The notes: generated from the letters alone by a model not told the origin. Shown: positions 36,404 through 58,995, numbered from the stretch's first letter. The stretch is DNA of 64,000 nt from an uncultured Caldilinea sp. (GCA_937928035.1 CALFWA010000109.1:221-64220), one strand, 5' to 3'. Numbers and translations are program-made.

Positions 36404-40159
<3,756 letters not shown>

Positions 40160-40190: not shown

Positions 40191-42053
<1,863 letters not shown>

Positions 42054-42224: not shown

Positions 42225-43862
<1,638 letters not shown>

Positions 43863-51410: not shown

Positions 51411-53027
<1,617 letters not shown>

Positions 53028-53042
53028 GACAGGCCGAGGCGC

Positions 53043-55724
53043 TCAGCGGTCGGGCGCCGTCGCCAGCGCCCAGGCGACGGTGTTCCACATCGCCAGATCG
53101 GCCAGGAGCATGAAAGCGTCGGTTTGCGCATGCGCCAGCCCGGTGACCAGGCCGGCGCATGCGCCCGCCGCCACCCAGAAACCGGCGGAGCCTCCCTCGA
53201 CCCGTCGCCGCAACGCCGCCCGAAGCGCCAAAACACACAGCACAAACCAGGCCAATCCCAACACGCCCCAGGTCGTCGTCAGCTCCAGCCAGACGTTGTG
53301 CGGGTGAAGCTGATCGACCTCCACCGCGCCGACAGGCAAATAGGCGGGATAGGTCCAAAAGAACCCGCCCGGCCCTACGCCGACCCAAAAGTGCTCGCGC
53401 CAGAGCGCAAAGGCCGCCGTCCACAGGGTCAACCGCAGCTCAACCGTCTGCAGATTGGCGAGGCGCTCCTGCTGCCAGAAGAAAATGAGCGCAAGCAAAA
53501 CAGCTAGCGCAACTATCGTCGAAAGCACCGGCCTGCGACGCATACGCAACCAACGCACGATCGCCGGTCTGCGATAGAGCAGAAAGCCTGCAAAGGTCGC
53601 CAGCCCTGCCGGGACGGCCAGGAACAACGCGCCGCGGCTGCCCGTCAGCATGAGCGCCCCAGCCAGCGCAAGCAACGCAGCCGCAACGACCATCCGCCGC
53701 CGTTTGTCGATCAGCGCCAATCCCGCCAGCCCGACGAACAGGCTGCGCTCCAAATAGAGCGCCGTATGGTTGGGCGAAAAATGCGGGCCCACCAGCCGTT
53801 GAACGCCGTCGACGTCGACGCCCTGGCCGGCTAGCCAGCGCATTATGCCGACGAGCGCCGCCAACATGCCGCCCGTCAGGAGCGCAAGCAACGCCCAGCC
53901 CCGCTCTCTGGAATCTGCGGTCAGCACGCGCACCGCCAGCCACAGCCCCAAGGGCGCCATCACCAGGTCAAGCGCGCCTCGTGCAAAGGCGGGCCAGCGC
54001 CAGACGTTCACAGCGCTCAGCAGCGTCAGCGGCAGAAGCAGCAGCGGAGCCAGCTCCCACCAGTAGAGGATGAAACCATCCGAAGAGTGAGGGCGGCGGA
54101 GCGCAGCAATGACTGCGGGCAGCAACGCCAGGGTGAGGGCGTGCGCTGGCGGGACAGTCAATACAACGTTGACCAACGCAAGCTCTTTATGCTGGAAATA
54201 GAAAGGGATCAGCGTCAGCGCCAGCCAGAGGCCGACCCGCGGCCGAGCGAGGCAGAGCCAGGTCGCCGCCAGCCAGCACAACCCGATCAACGGCGGGAAT
54301 GTAGCCAGATAATAGATCACCGCCAGCCCGGTCCACGCCAACACGTGCGCCCATTGCGGCGCGCGCCGCCACCGCTCCAGCCAGCGTCGCCAGGCGATTA
54401 TCTGCGCCGCCGCGACGCCGCGCCAGATCACCAACGCTATGGCAACCAGCAGCGCAACCCATTCTCCCCAGGGAACGCAGACCTCGCCTGTTGAGGGGCG
54501 CTGGCGCAGCATCTGCAACCAGTCTGTCAATGCGATGTAGACCGGTGCAGGCGTCCCGGCGAGATCGGTGAGGGCGAAGCCCCACGCTGGCATGCCCGGC
54601 GCTTCCGCCGGCCGGTCAATGACCCAACCCATCGCCTGCAGCCAGGGCCATGCGCGCCACGCCTGCTCCAGCGCGTCGCGCGCATAGCGCGCCTGCGCCT
54701 GCGGCGTCACCGTCCCCCACGGCGAGTTCAGCATACGGTTCCAGCCGAAACGCACCGCCCAGATCGGCTTGTCGCCGAGTCCGGAATCGACCAGCGCGCG
54801 CCGGATCAGGGCGGCGCGACTGAAGTTGAGCACATCCGGCTGCTGGCGAGGATCGGTTGCGCCGTAGCCGAAGCCAAAGGGTTGAATGGCGACCACGTCA
54901 AAAAAAGGCGCGGCGCCGGCTGCAATCATGCGCTGCAGATAATAAATTTCGTCGATGGCCAGATGCCCCCGGTCTATGGTGGGCGCCAAGGCGGCGGCGA
55001 GAATAACGGCGTCGGGGTCGGCCTGGCGCAGCGCAGGCGCCACCGTGCGCAACAGTTGTGCGTATTCGACCGGATTGATGTGGCGACGTCCCCAGTTCGG
55101 CGCGATGTTGGGCTCATCCCAAATCTGGTAATAGCGCACGCGATCGCCGTATCGTTGCGCAAAGCGTTCGACGAAGCGGGCAAAGTCGGCGTACTCCGCC
55201 GGCGGCCCTGTGCGCACGCCGGCTTTGCGATCCATCTCACTCAACGCCCAGTCCGGCGCGCCGGCGAGCACGATCACCGGCTCCAGTCCTGCGCTCGCCA
55301 CCTGCTCCAGCGCGCGGTCGGCGACATCCCAGACCCATTGCCCCGGAATAAGCTCCAGCTCTCGCCACTCCAGGCGAAAACGCACCCACCCGAAGCCGGC
55401 CGCGCGCAGTTGGTGCAACCTGAGGGCGAATTGTTCAGGCGCATACGCGTCGATCTGGAGGTTGACGCCGACGAACGGCGGCTGCGCGCCCCCCGCCGGG
55501 CTGCGGACAGGAACCCGCTGCAGTCCCACGCCCCCTTCCAGCGTTGCACGCCACAACAGGACGCCGGCTGCGATCAAGGCGCATATGATGCCGTAGAGCA
55601 TTGCAAGTCGCAGCCACGCCAGCGTTTGACGCAAGCCGTCGCCTTGTCGCAAGAAGGCGACCCAGAGTTGACCGCTCGCCTGCGTTCTTCGATGCGCAGC
55701 CCTTGTCTCATGCGCGGCGTTCAC
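53043..55724 (-). CDS. fusion membrane protein: N-terminal TIM-barrel glycoside-hydrolase-like domain + C-terminal O-antigen ligase/polymerase (Wzy_C)-like polytopic domain
   Basis: 893 aa, starting at the GTG at 55722-55724. After one TM helix comes a ~330-aa GH5/GH39-like region (FVGVNLQ, YYQIWDEPN with the candidate acid/base Glu, AIQPFGFGY). About 10 TM helices follow, with the Wzy_C-type loop (MLTGSRGALF). Confidence 0.72.
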   Translation of the reverse strand: MNAAHETRAAHRRTQASGQLWVAFLRQGDGLRQTLAWLRLAMLYGIICALIAAGVLLWRATLEGGVGLQRVPVRSPAGGAQPPFVGVNLQIDAYAPEQFALRLHQLRAAGFGWVRFRLEWRELELIPGQWVWDVADRALEQVASAGLEPVIVLAGAPDWALSEMDRKAGVRTGPPAEYADFARFVERFAQRYGDRVRYYQIWDEPNIAPNWGRRHINPVEYAQLLRTVAPALRQADPDAVILAAALAPTIDRGHLAIDEIYYLQRMIAAGAAPFFDVVAIQPFGFGYGATDPRQQPDVLNFSRAALIRRALVDSGLGDKPIWAVRFGWNRMLNSPWGTVTPQAQARYARDALEQAWRAWPWLQAMGWVIDRPAEAPGMPAWGFALTDLAGTPAPVYIALTDWLQMLRQRPSTGEVCVPWGEWVALLVAIALVIWRGVAAAQIIAWRRWLERWRRAPQWAHVLAWTGLAVIYYLATFPPLIGLCWLAATWLCLARPRVGLWLALTLIPFYFQHKELALVNVVLTVPPAHALTLALLPAVIAALRRPHSSDGFILYWWELAPLLLLPLTLLSAVNVWRWPAFARGALDLVMAPLGLWLAVRVLTADSRERGWALLALLTGGMLAALVGIMRWLAGQGVDVDGVQRLVGPHFSPNHTALYLERSLFVGLAGLALIDKRRRMVVAAALLALAGALMLTGSRGALFLAVPAGLATFAGFLLYRRPAIVRWLRMRRRPVLSTIVALAVLLALIFFWQQERLANLQTVELRLTLWTAAFALWREHFWVGVGPGGFFWTYPAYLPVGAVEVDQLHPHNVWLELTTTWGVLGLAWFVLCVLALRAALRRRVEGGSAGFWVAAGACAGLVTGLAHAQTDAFMLLADLAMWNTVAWALATAPDR

Positions 55725-55725
55725 A

Positions 55726-57138
55726 TCAATCCTGCGCCTCGCGTAGGATGGCGGCGAGGCGGTCGGCGGCTTCCCGGTTGGCGTCGATCGCCCTCAGCTT
55801 CTCGCCGTATTGTTTCAGGGTGCGCTCCGTGTGAGGTTCGGCGTCCAGACGGCGCGCCTGGATGAGCAGGTCCTCGATCTCGCGCAGCAGCTCCTGAAGC
55901 ATTCGCTGCATCGGCCTTAAAGAAGGGGACGACATAGCTGCATCCGGCGGCGTCAATCCGGCCAGCCACGCTTCCGCCTCGGCCAGCCGTTTTCGCAACG
56001 CCTCCACTTCGTACGGGGAAGGCGCCTGAGGCGGCTGGGGACGAAAGATCGACGCCGGAAGCTGCGCGACGTCAAACAGCGCGACGTCTGGCGCATTCAG
56101 CCAGAGCACCGGCGTTGCGTAGCCGATGCTGTCGGGGTTGAGCGCATAGAGGCTCGAACGCGCCAAGCTCATGGCGCTCGGCGCAATGCCTGGGCACGGG
56201 CCGGCGAACAGCGCCTGATAGAAATGCTGCGTAAAATCGCCTGCGATCGATTCTTCGATCGCAGCCTGCATGGCGACGACAGCCGGGACGCCACTCTGAA
56301 GCAGTTGAGCGCCGATGGAAGCCAGGCTGCGATTCAACGCGCCTTGCGCGGTGGCGCACGCGTTCAACACGACCATCCGGACGCTTTCGGCGTCGTCAAA
56401 CGCGGTGCGCAGCGTCGACGCCGAGGTCAACACGGGCGTCTCGCCCTGCCAAAACAGCACGCCCTCCGGCTGTCCGTGCGTGGTGATGTGCACGATGTCG
56501 GGGCGCAAATGGTCGATCATTTGGCGCAAATCCACCACGCTGAAACGCCCTTTCAATACGGCGACGTCGATCACCTCCGTGCTCAGCGCGCCGAGCGCCT
56601 CTTCGAGCCGTCGCGTCTCTGCGGCGGCGTCGATTTGGGCCGTGGGGTCCTCAGGCAACACGGCCAGCATGCGCAAGGGAAGTTTGCTGCGCAGCGCGCG
56701 CACCCGCCCCACGCGGCGCAGCTGGGTCTCTGCGCGCACCAGCGGCGTCCGCAGGCTGCGTGCGAACGCCAGGTTGCGGTCAGGGTCGAACAACATCTCC
56801 CAGGGCAGCGCCGCCACGGCCGGCGGCTGCGCCATCAGACGGAGACAGATGCCGGCTGCTCCCTGGTCGAGGTCGGCACAAGCGCGTATCCAGAGGTCGC
56901 GTACATCCTGGCGAAAGAGACGCGCATACAGCAACGCGCCGATCTCTTCGATTACGTTGCGGCCGGGATGGCCGTGCGCAGCGGCTATTTGCTCCAGCCG
57001 ATGAAGCCATGTCGGATCGCCGGCGTCATCGTCGAAACGGCCGGCGGCTGTGTACTGGCGATAGGAAGCGTGCACAAGGTAAGGCGCCTGAGAGCCGTGT
57101 ATGGTGATGTGAAAATCGGCGAAAGTGCAATCGGTCAT
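55726..57138 (-). CDS. CHAT domain (caspase-like cysteine protease) protein with C-terminal coiled coil
   Basis: Trimmed to the ATG at 57136-57138 (MTDCTFADFHITIHG...). The CHAT core has His in DIVHITTHGQPEG and Cys in MVVLNACATAQG. The ~90-aa C-terminus is helical (EVEALRKRLAEAEAWL...LREIEDLLIQARRL). Its TGA stop (55726-55728) is 1 nt from the next GTG. Confidence 0.85.
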   Translation of the reverse strand: MTDCTFADFHITIHGSQAPYLVHASYRQYTAAGRFDDDAGDPTWLHRLEQIAAAHGHPGRNVIEEIGALLYARLFRQDVRDLWIRACADLDQGAAGICLRLMAQPPAVAALPWEMLFDPDRNLAFARSLRTPLVRAETQLRRVGRVRALRSKLPLRMLAVLPEDPTAQIDAAAETRRLEEALGALSTEVIDVAVLKGRFSVVDLRQMIDHLRPDIVHITTHGQPEGVLFWQGETPVLTSASTLRTAFDDAESVRMVVLNACATAQGALNRSLASIGAQLLQSGVPAVVAMQAAIEESIAGDFTQHFYQALFAGPCPGIAPSAMSLARSSLYALNPDSIGYATPVLWLNAPDVALFDVAQLPASIFRPQPPQAPSPYEVEALRKRLAEAEAWLAGLTPPDAAMSSPSLRPMQRMLQELLREIEDLLIQARRLDAEPHTERTLKQYGEKLRAIDANREAADRLAAILREAQD

Positions 57139-57177
57139 TGCGCCGGCCCGTTGAAGGATCGAAAAATCCGTCGGCAA

Positions 57178-57196
57178 TTTTGTGCAAAACACAAAA
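57178..57196. promoter_or_regulatory. inverted repeat TTTTGTG-N5-CACAAAA in the 80-bp divergent region between the CHAT gene and the membrane protein gene
   Basis: TTTTGTG at 57178-57184 and CACAAAA at 57190-57196. A related TGTACACA follows at 57201-57208. Confidence 0.35.
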
Positions 57197-57218
57197 GTAT
57201 TGTACACAAAGATACACT

Positions 57219-58118
57219 ATGCATATTAATCGGTGGAGCATCTGGCGAGAAGGATTCTGGGAACGGTGGCGGTGGCGCCTGCGCGCCGATCTTTCCGGCC
57301 TGGATTATCGCGACCGCATCAGCGTCACGACCTGGGTGCTCGTCTTTGGGTTTGGGCTCAGCCTTATCGTAGAAATTCCCTCCATCGTGATTCGTTTCCG
57401 CGCCTTCGGGACGCCCGCCGAGATCGAGCTGACTTCGACGATGATCATGGGCATCTTCCTGGCGATTGCAGCCGCTGCGGGCGCCGAAAGCCTGATTCGG
57501 CTGCATCCCAAGCGCCAGGCGAATCGGCTGGGATTGACCTGGGCCTATTGGGCGCTGCCGGCCGCCATGTCCATCATCACCGTGGTGCTGCTTCCCAGCC
57601 TGCCGACGCGCTTTTTGCAGATTTTGGTGATCTTGGCGGCGGGCGTTCTGTTGATCATCGCCTTTTTCAGCCTGTACGCTACGGTGGAGCCGGGCCAACC
57701 GGGGTTTCGCCGCGCCCGTCTCTGGCTAGATGCGCTGGCCTACGGGGTGGCGCTATTGCTCTTTCTGTTCGTTTATCAGGCGCGCACGCGCAGCCTGCTT
57801 TCGGGCACGTTGATCGCATTGACGGCGACGCTGCTGGCCGTGGAGCTGCTGCGCACCTCTTCCGATGAGACGCGCCGCGTGCTGATCTACAGCGCGGTCG
57901 TAGGCCTCCTGCTAGGTGAAATGACATGGGCGTTGAACTACTGGCCGCTGTTGCCCGGCCTGACGGGAGGGTTGCTCCTGCTGCTGAGCTTCTACCTGGC
58001 CATCGGCATTGCGCTGCAGAGCCTGCAGGGACGGCTGACCAAACGCGTGATGGTCGAGTTCGGCGTCTTCGCCGTGATTGCCGTGATCCTGATCGTCCTT
58101 TTCGGCCCGGGGTTTTGA
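57219..58118 (+). CDS. polytopic membrane protein of unknown family
   Basis: Trimmed to ATG 57219 (MHINRWSIWREGFWERWRWRL...). About 8 hydrophobic helices and no motif I recognise. Confidence 0.55.
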   Translation: MHINRWSIWREGFWERWRWRLRADLSGLDYRDRISVTTWVLVFGFGLSLIVEIPSIVIRFRAFGTPAEIELTSTMIMGIFLAIAAAAGAESLIRLHPKRQANRLGLTWAYWALPAAMSIITVVLLPSLPTRFLQILVILAAGVLLIIAFFSLYATVEPGQPGFRRARLWLDALAYGVALLLFLFVYQARTRSLLSGTLIALTATLLAVELLRTSSDETRRVLIYSAVVGLLLGEMTWALNYWPLLPGLTGGLLLLLSFYLAIGIALQSLQGRLTKRVMVEFGVFAVIAVILIVLFGPGF

Positions 58119-58163
58119 CACGCTGAACGCACTTGCCGAACGCACACGCCGAGGGCGAGCGCG

Positions 58164-58243
<80 letters not shown>

Positions 58244-58278
58244 GCAAGCGGAAACGTTCGATACAGAGAAAAGCTCTA

Positions 58279-58995
58279 ATGTCTGCACGGGAATATCTTC
58301 GCATTTTACGCAAATACGGGTGGATTGTGGTCGTCGCCGTGGTGTTGGCGGCGCTGGGAGCGTTCGCCATCAGCAATTTCCAAAAGCGGCTCTACCAGGC
58401 CACGGTGGAAGTTAGCACCGTGCCTGCCCGCGCCGACTGGGGGCTCGGCAACACTGCCAAAGATTTGATGCGCAACTTCACCGCCAATCTGCGCACGCCG
58501 GAGGTGGCGGCGCGCGTGATCGCCCGTCAGCAACTCGACATGAATCCTTACGACCTGCTGGCGAACACCCAGATCGAGCCGGATTCGAGCACCTTTACGA
58601 TCAAAATTCAGGTGCGCAACCCAGACGGCGAAGTGGCGAAGCTGGCGGCCCTGGGCTTCGCCGATGAGTTCTACGAGGAACGCACCGCCTACTACGCCCA
58701 GCAGGATAAACGCGACCAGATCGAGGTCAAAATTCGCAGTCGGGACATCAGCTATACGCAAGTTCAGCCTAAGCCGATGCTCAATGCAATTGCAGGGGCC
58801 GTGCTAGGGCTGCTCCTAGGCGTCGCCGTCGTCATGCTGTTGACATGGATGGAAGCAGACATGCTGCGCACGCCGGCGGCCATCGAACGGGCGCTGGGCG
58901 TGCCGGTGCTGGGCGCCATTCCGCGGTCCAACCCGCGCAGAGTCATCAAGCCGGAAGTCCAGCCCGGCCGCGTCGGCGCTCCCAAGACTGCGTAG
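58279..58995 (+). CDS. Wzz/polysaccharide chain-length determinant (PCP2b-type transmembrane modulator)
   Basis: 238 aa. The N-terminal Wzz motif and TM helix read YLRILRKYGWIVVVAVVLAALGAFAISNF. A second TM helix near the C-terminus is followed by a short cytoplasmic tail, as in CapA/YwqC-type kinase activators. Confidence 0.8.
   Translation: MSAREYLRILRKYGWIVVVAVVLAALGAFAISNFQKRLYQATVEVSTVPARADWGLGNTAKDLMRNFTANLRTPEVAARVIARQQLDMNPYDLLANTQIEPDSSTFTIKIQVRNPDGEVAKLAALGFADEFYEERTAYYAQQDKRDQIEVKIRSRDISYTQVQPKPMLNAIAGAVLGLLLGVAVVMLLTWMEADMLRTPAAIERALGVPVLGAIPRSNPRRVIKPEVQPGRVGAPKTA

Follow-up and report, generated by a model that had tools for sequence, protein, structure and literature searches.

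Many bacterial CHAT proteins belong to conflict or defence systems, e.g., Csx29 and SAVED-CHAT. Outside defence, to our knowledge, very few bacterial CHAT or caspase-like proteases have a known job, and HetF is the main example. In Anabaena, HetF is a septal CHAT protease that binds FtsI and is required for septal wall synthesis, and it cleaves PatU3 after Arg117 (PMC8406250, PMC9457339). Here we analyzed 64,000 nucleotides (nt) of DNA from an uncultured Caldilinea sp. (GCA_937928035.1 CALFWA010000109.1:221-64220; hereafter the window, with positions counted from its first letter), in which the gene for a CHAT protease of 470 amino acids (aa) is directly followed by the gene for an 893-aa membrane protein that joins a PslG-like domain to a Wzy_C-type domain (hereafter the fusion).

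Like HetF, the window protein would be a housekeeping CHAT protease of filamentous multicellular bacteria with a tie to membrane-bound, envelope-synthesizing machinery. The two differ in build: HetF, with 836 aa, sits in the membrane itself and binds FtsI, whereas here a 470-aa soluble protease stands beside a separate, co-translated glycan enzyme, and no PatU3-like gene was identified here. The catalytic domain and its dyad motifs are shared with SAVED-CHAT (8TL0, the closest solved structure by sequence) and with the Csx29/TPR-CHAT protease of type III-E systems. Unlike these CRISPR-associated proteins, the protein here lacks a SAVED or TPR sensor domain; CRISPR and cyclic-nucleotide genes are absent, and the CHAT gene lies in a core-genome context and not in a defence island.

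For the partner, two families serve for comparison. The Wzy_C superfamily comprises the WaaL O-antigen ligases, the Wzy polymerases and the PglL/PilO O-oligosaccharyltransferases. The fusion resembles these enzymes in being polytopic with a large outside loop that holds invariant Arg and His residues, an assignment made at the superfamily level, but it differs in carrying a GH39-like domain on the same chain and in its pairing with a cytoplasmic protease. With PslG, from the Psl pathway of Pseudomonas aeruginosa, it shares an N-terminal membrane anchor followed by a TIM-barrel on the outside, and an acid/base residue in a W-[ND]-E-P-N motif. The catalytic residues of PslG are Glu165 (acid/base) and Glu276 (nucleophile) (PMC11912335). 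Here the nucleophile Glu276 corresponds to Arg325, the domain is fused to a Wzy_C-type domain whereas PslG stands alone, and no psl-like genes are conserved around the fusion gene.

The initial annotation of this DNA held that CHAT proteases were not known from Wzy-type polysaccharide pathways, and in the literature searched we likewise found no publication joining a CHAT domain with Wzy-type enzymes. The parts are members of known families; what is new is their conserved pairing and the Arg-substituted PslG-like domain fused to a Wzy_C-type domain, and possibly also the promoter layout.

The operon and its two products

The operon occupies the minus strand of the window as follows:

55726..57138, minus strand: CHAT protease gene, 470 aa (Pfam PF12770; 62 orthologous loci)
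55722..55728, minus strand: stop/start junction TGA-T-GTG, as read in the sequence
53043..55724, minus strand: fusion gene, 893-aa membrane protein (hydropathy, Pfam, AlphaFold2 model)

The CHAT gene starts with the ATG at 57138, which matches M1 of the orthologues; a longer open reading frame (ORF) with a GTG start from 57207 was unsupported by the orthologue alignment. At its other end, the stop codon TGA (55728-55726) is separated by a single T from the GTG start of the fusion gene (55724-55722), i.e., the 1-nt gap reported in the initial annotation is real, and AGGA lies 5 nt 5′ of this GTG. The only other in-frame start ahead of the first transmembrane helix (TM1) is a TTG at codon 25, and a sigma-70 consensus scan of 52900-58400 found no minus-strand promoter-like site between the two genes, which places the start of the fusion at the junction rather than at a distant internal codon with its own promoter. 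These results show that the CHAT and fusion genes form a two-gene operon, with the second gene translated directly behind the first. The window DNA is 94.7% identical across 16.3 kb to that of a Caldilinea sp. metagenome-assembled genome.

The CHAT protein has three parts, mapped here with the codons of its catalytic dyad:

~65 aa, minus strand: N-terminal domain (architecture)
aa 70-346, nt 56101-56931, minus strand: CHAT core (PF12770)
56476..56478, minus strand: codon of the catalytic His221, THG motif (invariant in orthologues, aligns with HG of 8TL0)
56356..56358, minus strand: codon of the catalytic Cys261, LNAC motif (invariant in orthologues, aligns with NAC of 8TL0)
aa 376-468, nt 55735-56013, minus strand: helical tail (helical segments)

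The core matches the Pfam CHAT family at 80.6 bits (cut-off 24; E=1.7e-22; aa 70-346), and His221 (IVHITTHG) and Cys261 (VVLNAC) showed no variation in 21 orthologues of 31-80% identity. When the orthologue profile was compared with solved structures, SAVED-CHAT 8TL0 was found at E=1e-14 with its HG and NAC motifs (ILHFIGHG, VVLNAC) aligned; the candidate His and Cys residues picked out in the initial annotation therefore sit at the catalytic motifs. Hydropathy analysis of the protein revealed no transmembrane segment, hydrophobic segment or signal peptide. The product, whose dyad is intact, is thus predicted to be a soluble, cytoplasmic endopeptidase of the caspase fold with proteolytic activity. 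Its C-terminal ~100 residues, previously described as a coiled coil, instead form three amphipathic helical segments (~376-393, 410-432 and 440-468) broken by prolines, which does not support a single long coiled coil.

Similarities to other protease families were slight. The HetF model (NCBIfam NF045509) matched locally, at aa 65-125, with 34 bits against a cut-off of 1200; since the protein also lacks a membrane part, its membership in the HetF family was rejected. The PADLOC SAVED_CHAT model gave a weak match (1e-6) confined to the CHAT domain, and similarity to Peptidase_C25 was weak and under the family cut-off (E=0.0039). Besides the dyad, His217 is invariant among the orthologues and Cys315 nearly so, and every aligned full-length orthologue starts M-x-x-C, which conserves Cys4 (codon 57127-57129, minus strand). 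Cys4, His217 and Cys315 could form a metal site or serve redox control.

The features of the fusion are:

aa 40-58, nt 55551-55607, minus strand: TM1 (hydropathy, AlphaFold2)
aa 78-425, nt 54450..55493, minus strand: PslG-like (GH39-type) TIM-barrel (profile, Foldseek)
55113-55115, minus strand: codon of Glu204, acid/base (alignment to PslG Glu165)
54750-54752, minus strand: codon of Arg325 (alignment to the PslG nucleophile Glu276)
aa 426-893, nt 53046..54449, minus strand: Wzy_C/O-antigen-ligase-type polytopic domain (PF04932)
aa 682-827, nt 53244-53681, minus strand: stretch matched by Pfam Wzy_C (PF04932)
aa 751-819, minus strand: large outside loop, which holds the invariant HPH motif with His807 and His809

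The topology of the 893-aa protein was derived from hydropathy and an AlphaFold2 model (pLDDT 83.8, pTM 0.82): a cytoplasmic N-terminal helix, TM1, a domain on the outside (~aa 78-410) and 10-12 more helices. The cytoplasmic helix spans aa 15-39, and cytoplasmic loops lie at aa 434-466 and 717-731. A profile of the outside domain found PslG among PDB sequences (4zn2/5bx9, E=7e-28), and PslG was also the top Foldseek hit (9g17/5bx9; E ~6e-13, TM-score 0.65, root mean square deviation 3.4 Å over 331 columns). The acid/base Glu204, in WDEPN after strand 4, equivalent to PslG Glu165, was kept in 30/30 sequences. In place of the nucleophile, Glu276 in IWSTEWGW of PslG, the fusion has Arg325 in IWAVRFGW; the local alignment score of this segment is weak on its own and the spacing is colinear. 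Arg325 lies at the end of a predicted strand (321-326) in the AlphaFold2 model, as fits the nucleophile site of clan GH-A, and among the family members this position is Arg in 29/30, Ala in 1/30 and Glu in 0/30. The Glu that serves GH39 enzymes as nucleophile, located where strand 7 ends, thus appears to have been replaced and, because its column holds Arg325 and never Glu, the PslG-like half is most likely no retaining hydrolase. A substrate-assisted mechanism like that of GH18/GH20, using the D-E pair of WDEPN, is less likely because the Asp varies and is Asn or His in some orthologues.

The second half matches Pfam Wzy_C at 60 bits (cut-off 31.7; E=3e-16), and the annotation of its relatives in the source data reads 'O-antigen ligase family protein'. 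R643, R660, R697, R754, R764, H807, H809, H865 and D869 are invariant. A profile of this domain found nothing at E<=1 among PDB sequences, solved WaaL included. Of the polymerase/hydrolase fusion proposed in the initial annotation, the Wzy_C part holds up, whereas the hydrolase part is weakened by the exchange of the nucleophile Glu for Arg325.

A profile search from the fusion side, covering 1.84 billion representative proteins, returned 1,819 relatives at E<=1e-30, many of them two-domain proteins of 950-1100 aa. Distant fusions have Glu, Ala, His, Gln or Thr in the nucleophile column, and Arg is restricted to the CHAT-linked family; because of this variation, repeated loss of the nucleophile in the fusion family is indicated. 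Three loci of distant relatives were inspected, and neither a CHAT nor a DUF5656 gene (the latter being the divergent neighbour of the pair in the window) was found nearby. Two distant fusions that keep the nucleophile Glu (L146:2062-4797 and L148:84-2003) have as neighbours an extracytoplasmic function (ECF) sigma/anti-sigma pair and a bactofilin, or MreB/MreC, in 1-2 loci each; these neighbourhoods are cell-shape contexts.

Conservation of the CHAT-fusion pair

CHAT orthologues were searched in one genome per species, and conservation was scored over the loci with enough flank. The search gave 62 loci at 35-94% identity with one match per assembly, all of them in metagenome-assembled genomes of the Caldilineaceae/Caldilineales type. 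Adjacency of the two genes in related genomes had been set beforehand as a test of the association: a fusion with both halves, on the same strand and downstream of CHAT, was present at 51/52 testable loci. In most loci, translation of the fusion could first start between -26 and +107 nt from the CHAT stop, and several loci have overlaps of 4 nt (ATGA-type) or 1 nt; at one locus (L024) the fusion is frameshifted.

Unbiased clustering of the flanking ORFs returned only three universal genes, i.e., CHAT, the fusion and DUF5656, followed in frequency by PanE, GlpABC-like oxidoreductases, a phosphoenolpyruvate (PEP)-utilising enzyme, a Mur ligase and a 563-aa protein without a Pfam match. The trio stays intact while its outer flanks vary, with at least 5 arrangements on the DUF5656 side and at least 6 on the fusion side. 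No NTPase (STAND/AAA), SAVED, TPR or CRISPR gene was found among the conserved neighbours of the trio. The context is a housekeeping one, because the genes around the pair include PanE, GlpABC-like ones and a Mur ligase, and each assembly has one match. These results show vertical inheritance of the pair as a housekeeping module of one filamentous Caldilineaceae clade. A ~560-aa protein with no Pfam or NCBIfam match is encoded downstream of the fusion in ~29 relatives (e.g., L009:12259-13950 and L022:13880-15526, both on the minus strand), with a Mur ligase gene following in ~19 of these; it is not in the flanks of the trio in the window's genus.

A comparable arrangement was observed in a sister CHAT family (P0064/P0065), whose 462-aa members are 33% identical to the window protein and have the same three-part architecture. 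Here the gene belongs to a conserved GH18-GNAT-HAD-CHAT-MatE operon (L138:6001-8760; L139-L141), in which MatE starts 3 nt after the CHAT stop. The two families are alike in having the gene of a polytopic membrane protein within 3 nt downstream, and differ in that this partner is a MatE transporter rather than a PslG-like/Wzy_C fusion and that DUF5656 is absent. The distant stand-alone CHAT proteins P0067, P0094 and P0109 occur in unrelated contexts with no membrane partner, and for this reason the coupling is no general trait of CHAT proteins.

DUF5656, the control region and other genes of the window

Upstream of the operon lie a divergent gene and a short spacer with three candidate control elements:

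57219..58118, plus strand: DUF5656 gene, 299-aa polytopic membrane protein with ~9 helices (Pfam PF18900)
57139..57218, unstranded: divergent spacer between the CHAT and DUF5656 genes, 80 bp (palindrome, degenerate promoter-like site, TGTGTACAAT box)
57178-57196, in the spacer: palindrome TTTTGTG-caaaa-CACAAAA, as read in the sequence
57151-57179, plus strand: degenerate promoter-like TTGAAG-N17-GCAATT, at the same place as the promoter of relatives
57199-57208, read on the minus strand: TGTGTACAAT box, beside the DUF5656 start

The divergent membrane protein was previously given as of unknown family. It is DUF5656 (PF18900; 320.9 bits against a cut-off of 23.3, E=6e-96), and the 80-bp spacing from the CHAT start to its ATG at 57219 was as first described. 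Foldseek of its AlphaFold2 model (pLDDT 78) found no match in the PDB (best E 0.78, TM-score <0.3), and the literature searched held no publication mentioning DUF5656. The gene lies divergently upstream of CHAT in 58/58 loci with enough flank.

To view the association from the other side, metagenome contigs were scanned with a DNA pattern of two invariant DUF5656 motifs, which yielded 58 loci. With room upstream in 37 of them, CHAT was present in 19 and absent in 18, and the fusion was present in 9/9 testable loci among the 19. In the DUF5656 tree, CHAT is missing from a distant outgroup and present in the main clade; a single nested subclade has neither CHAT nor the fusion, and its DUF5656 gene still keeps genes for PanE, GlpC, glycerol kinase and a PtsI-like protein around it. 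We conclude that the CHAT-fusion pair is the real unit, acquired once next to DUF5656, the older gene; the two genes were apparently also lost jointly, once. No DUF5656 column is conserved in the CHAT-linked copies and yet different in the nested CHAT-less clade, and DUF5656 was therefore rejected as a co-evolving partner or substrate. It is older than the pair, a persistent neighbour that shares a control region. The conserved triad that the initial annotation asked about thus exists as a gene arrangement, and its third member, which also occurs without the pair, is at most a putative partner.

Other contexts of DUF5656 give a hint that its role is carbohydrate-related. In pair-less lineages from metagenome loci (L116, L118, L127, L088, L107 and others) it lies amid glycerol/dihydroxyacetone genes, i.e., those for a PtsI-like PEP-utilising enzyme, an FGGY kinase, EIIA-man, a GlpC-like protein and PanE, and a distant DUF5656 clade adjoins a glycogen-phosphorylase-like protein (DUF3417) and a TreT-type glycosyltransferase.

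The palindrome in the spacer, seen already in the initial annotation, is present in the window but not conserved: its arms are mismatched in the closest relatives (L001, L002) and nothing similar occurs in other loci, and it was rejected as a conserved operator. A perfect TTGACA-N17/18-TA[CG]AAT promoter was found on the DUF5656-coding strand in 51/78 distinct upstream regions (L003-L131, e.g., L009:7960-8000), in most of which its -35 box is 5-8 nt from the CHAT start codon. The window itself has only the degenerate TTGAAG-N17-GCAATT copy and no perfect promoter, and the sigma-70 consensus scan of 52900-58400 found no promoter in its spacer. The TGTGTACAAT box, common to the window, L001-L008, L017, L052, L100, L105 and L108, resembles an extended -10 element and may serve the CHAT operon. 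If both sites are promoters, the two transcription units would be read toward each other, each across the 5′ region of the other, with overlapping 5′ untranslated regions. No Rfam family matched the window or any of four related loci that were scanned.

Downstream of DUF5656, the window holds genes for a Wzz/CspC-like chain-length protein, a DUF2079 protein, a bacterial tyrosine kinase (BY-kinase; TIGR01007, 3.5e-40) and a sugar nucleotidyltransferase (NTP_transferase), identities that agree with the initial annotation. The Wzy-pathway setting that it drew from them is limited to the window's genus: the set occurs in the window, L001, L002 and L091 only and is absent from the other ~55 loci. 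A Wzx/Wzy-dependent pathway locus was rejected, as conserved co-location of the pair with a flippase, a chain-length regulator/BY-kinase and an initiating transferase was not found. Behind DUF5656 lies a hairpin that resembles a terminator (58153-58170), and ahead of the Wzz-like gene there is a promoter-like site (58178-58206, plus strand), which suggests that these exopolysaccharide genes are transcribed on their own. The ORFs of Wzz (to 58995) and DUF2079 (from 58845), both mechanical calls, overlap by 150 nt, and because of this overlap DUF2079 probably starts later. Elsewhere in the window, further envelope genes encode a PA14/NHL-repeat protein of 1251 aa (36404-40159, minus strand), a PGA_cap-domain protein (40191-42053, minus strand) and MurJ (42225-43862, plus strand), and a 1642-aa hybrid sensor kinase (21259-26187, minus strand) has a CHASE domain, four PAS domains, HisKA/HATPase and two receiver domains.

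Proposed role of the protease

The association of the two genes is solid and unreported; the mechanism behind it, including the proteolytic switch put forward in the initial annotation, is one that we infer. In the reading that we favour, with a probability of about 0.4, the CHAT protein would be a HetF-like housekeeping protease that is assembled with a surface-glycan enzyme and gates it through limited proteolysis. Protease and membrane enzyme would be produced in step, and the protease would bind the fusion; its helical C-terminus probably contacts either the cytoplasmic helix at the N-terminus of the fusion or the Arg-rich loops. Limited proteolysis on the cytoplasmic side of the membrane would control ligation or polymerisation of surface glycan, by the same logic as HetF control of septal wall synthesis in filamentous cyanobacteria, and the PslG-like domain, with Arg in place of its nucleophile, would hold the glycan or pass it on instead of hydrolysing it. 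We favour this reading because the pair is kept at nearly all testable loci over a wide range of CHAT identity, with tight junctions, has survived changes of flank and is absent jointly; because the sister CHAT gene is also coupled to a polytopic membrane protein and HetF provides a precedent; and because of the local HetF match and the PslG-like fold with Arg at the position of the nucleophile.

Several points weigh against it. The active sites of the fusion are predicted to face outward and the protease to be cytoplasmic, and the N-terminal tail of the fusion is poorly conserved in sequence. One locus (L038) carries the CHAT gene without the fusion, distant fusion relatives occur without any CHAT, and gene order alone would fit partner-directed action and mere co-expression alike. 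In a further-reaching version, which we consider improbable, the cytoplasmic protease would be a stoichiometric subunit of an outward-facing synthase of surface polymer, the GH39 domain having turned into a glycan- or pyrophosphate-binding and possibly transferring module; proteolysis would gate the assembly of sheath or surface glycan, and promoters placed face to face would set the machinery against DUF5656.

Co-expression without partner-directed cleavage would be expected if the CHAT protein were a HetF-type regulator of a third-party substrate, a separate soluble or membrane-bound regulator acting, e.g., in division or filament development, with the membrane enzyme only co-expressed or serving as a membrane anchor. 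HetF itself acts on PatU3 and not on its binding partner FtsI (PMC9457339, PMC8406250), and the local match of the CHAT protein to the HetF model, the short cytoplasmic parts and poorly conserved N-terminus of the fusion, and the sister CHAT pairing with MatE, which suggests an anchoring partner, are consistent with such a role. The conserved neighbours of the pair offer no candidate for such a third gene, however, and with 34 bits against 1200 and no HetF membrane part the CHAT protein falls far under the family cut-off; we hold this explanation to be rather unlikely, though likelier than the other alternatives below. Gene-order inertia, i.e., neighbours by descent in one family, with a protease functionally unconnected to both membrane proteins, could draw on the facts that every locus comes from a single lineage, that DUF5656 keeps its PanE/glp/dha surroundings in pair-less lineages and shows no co-adaptation, and that distant fusion relatives lack CHAT. 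It is hard to reconcile with stop/start overlaps or gaps below ~110 nt maintained across 35-94% identity, with a pair that stayed together while the flanks on either side were rearranged independently at least 5-6 times, with the joint absence of CHAT and fusion from the nested CHAT-less clade, and with an Arg325 fixed in the CHAT-linked subfamily only, and we regard it as quite unlikely.

The initial annotation had also raised an abortive response. In an anti-phage or conflict module, CHAT would be the effector or trigger and the membrane proteins a sensor or suicide effector, a role suggested by the many bacterial CHAT proteins that sit in such systems, by the weak PADLOC SAVED_CHAT match within the CHAT domain and by SAVED-CHAT 8TL0 as the closest solved structure. 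Set against this, the conserved neighbours include no NTPase, SAVED, TPR, CRISPR or other sensor gene, PADLOC was empty for both membrane proteins, and the single match per assembly, core-genome position, vertical inheritance and housekeeping flanks make a defence role very unlikely. PorU and GPI8 are caspase-fold enzymes that offer models of sortase-like action. By analogy, CHAT might cleave a protein and pass it to glycan made by the ligase-type partner, and both the sub-threshold Peptidase_C25 similarity and the O-antigen-ligase type of the partner, which joins glycans to acceptors, would be compatible with such a transpeptidase. But a CHAT protein without signal peptide or transmembrane segment should be cytoplasmic, on the other side of the membrane from the ligase-type loop and the PslG-like domain, and no conserved cargo gene was found; we judge this extremely unlikely.

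The conserved pair suggests a previously undescribed, protease-controlled step in the building of the cell surface. If confirmed, it would be a second, independently evolved CHAT protease tied to an envelope enzyme, this time a glycan ligase or polymerase and not a peptidoglycan synthase, and if the proposed gating is true, limited proteolysis by caspase-fold enzymes would be a recurrent control of wall and surface assembly in multicellular bacteria. The fusion family also provides a natural series on a 'dead' glycosidase, from distant members with the nucleophile kept to CHAT-linked members with a fixed Arg. Caldilineaceae filaments are abundant in activated sludge, which gives the pair practical relevance, although its carriers, as uncultured metagenome-assembled genomes, limit direct genetics. 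Should the subunit version be true, the pair would represent a new class of protease-gated glycan machine in the filament growth of Chloroflexota.

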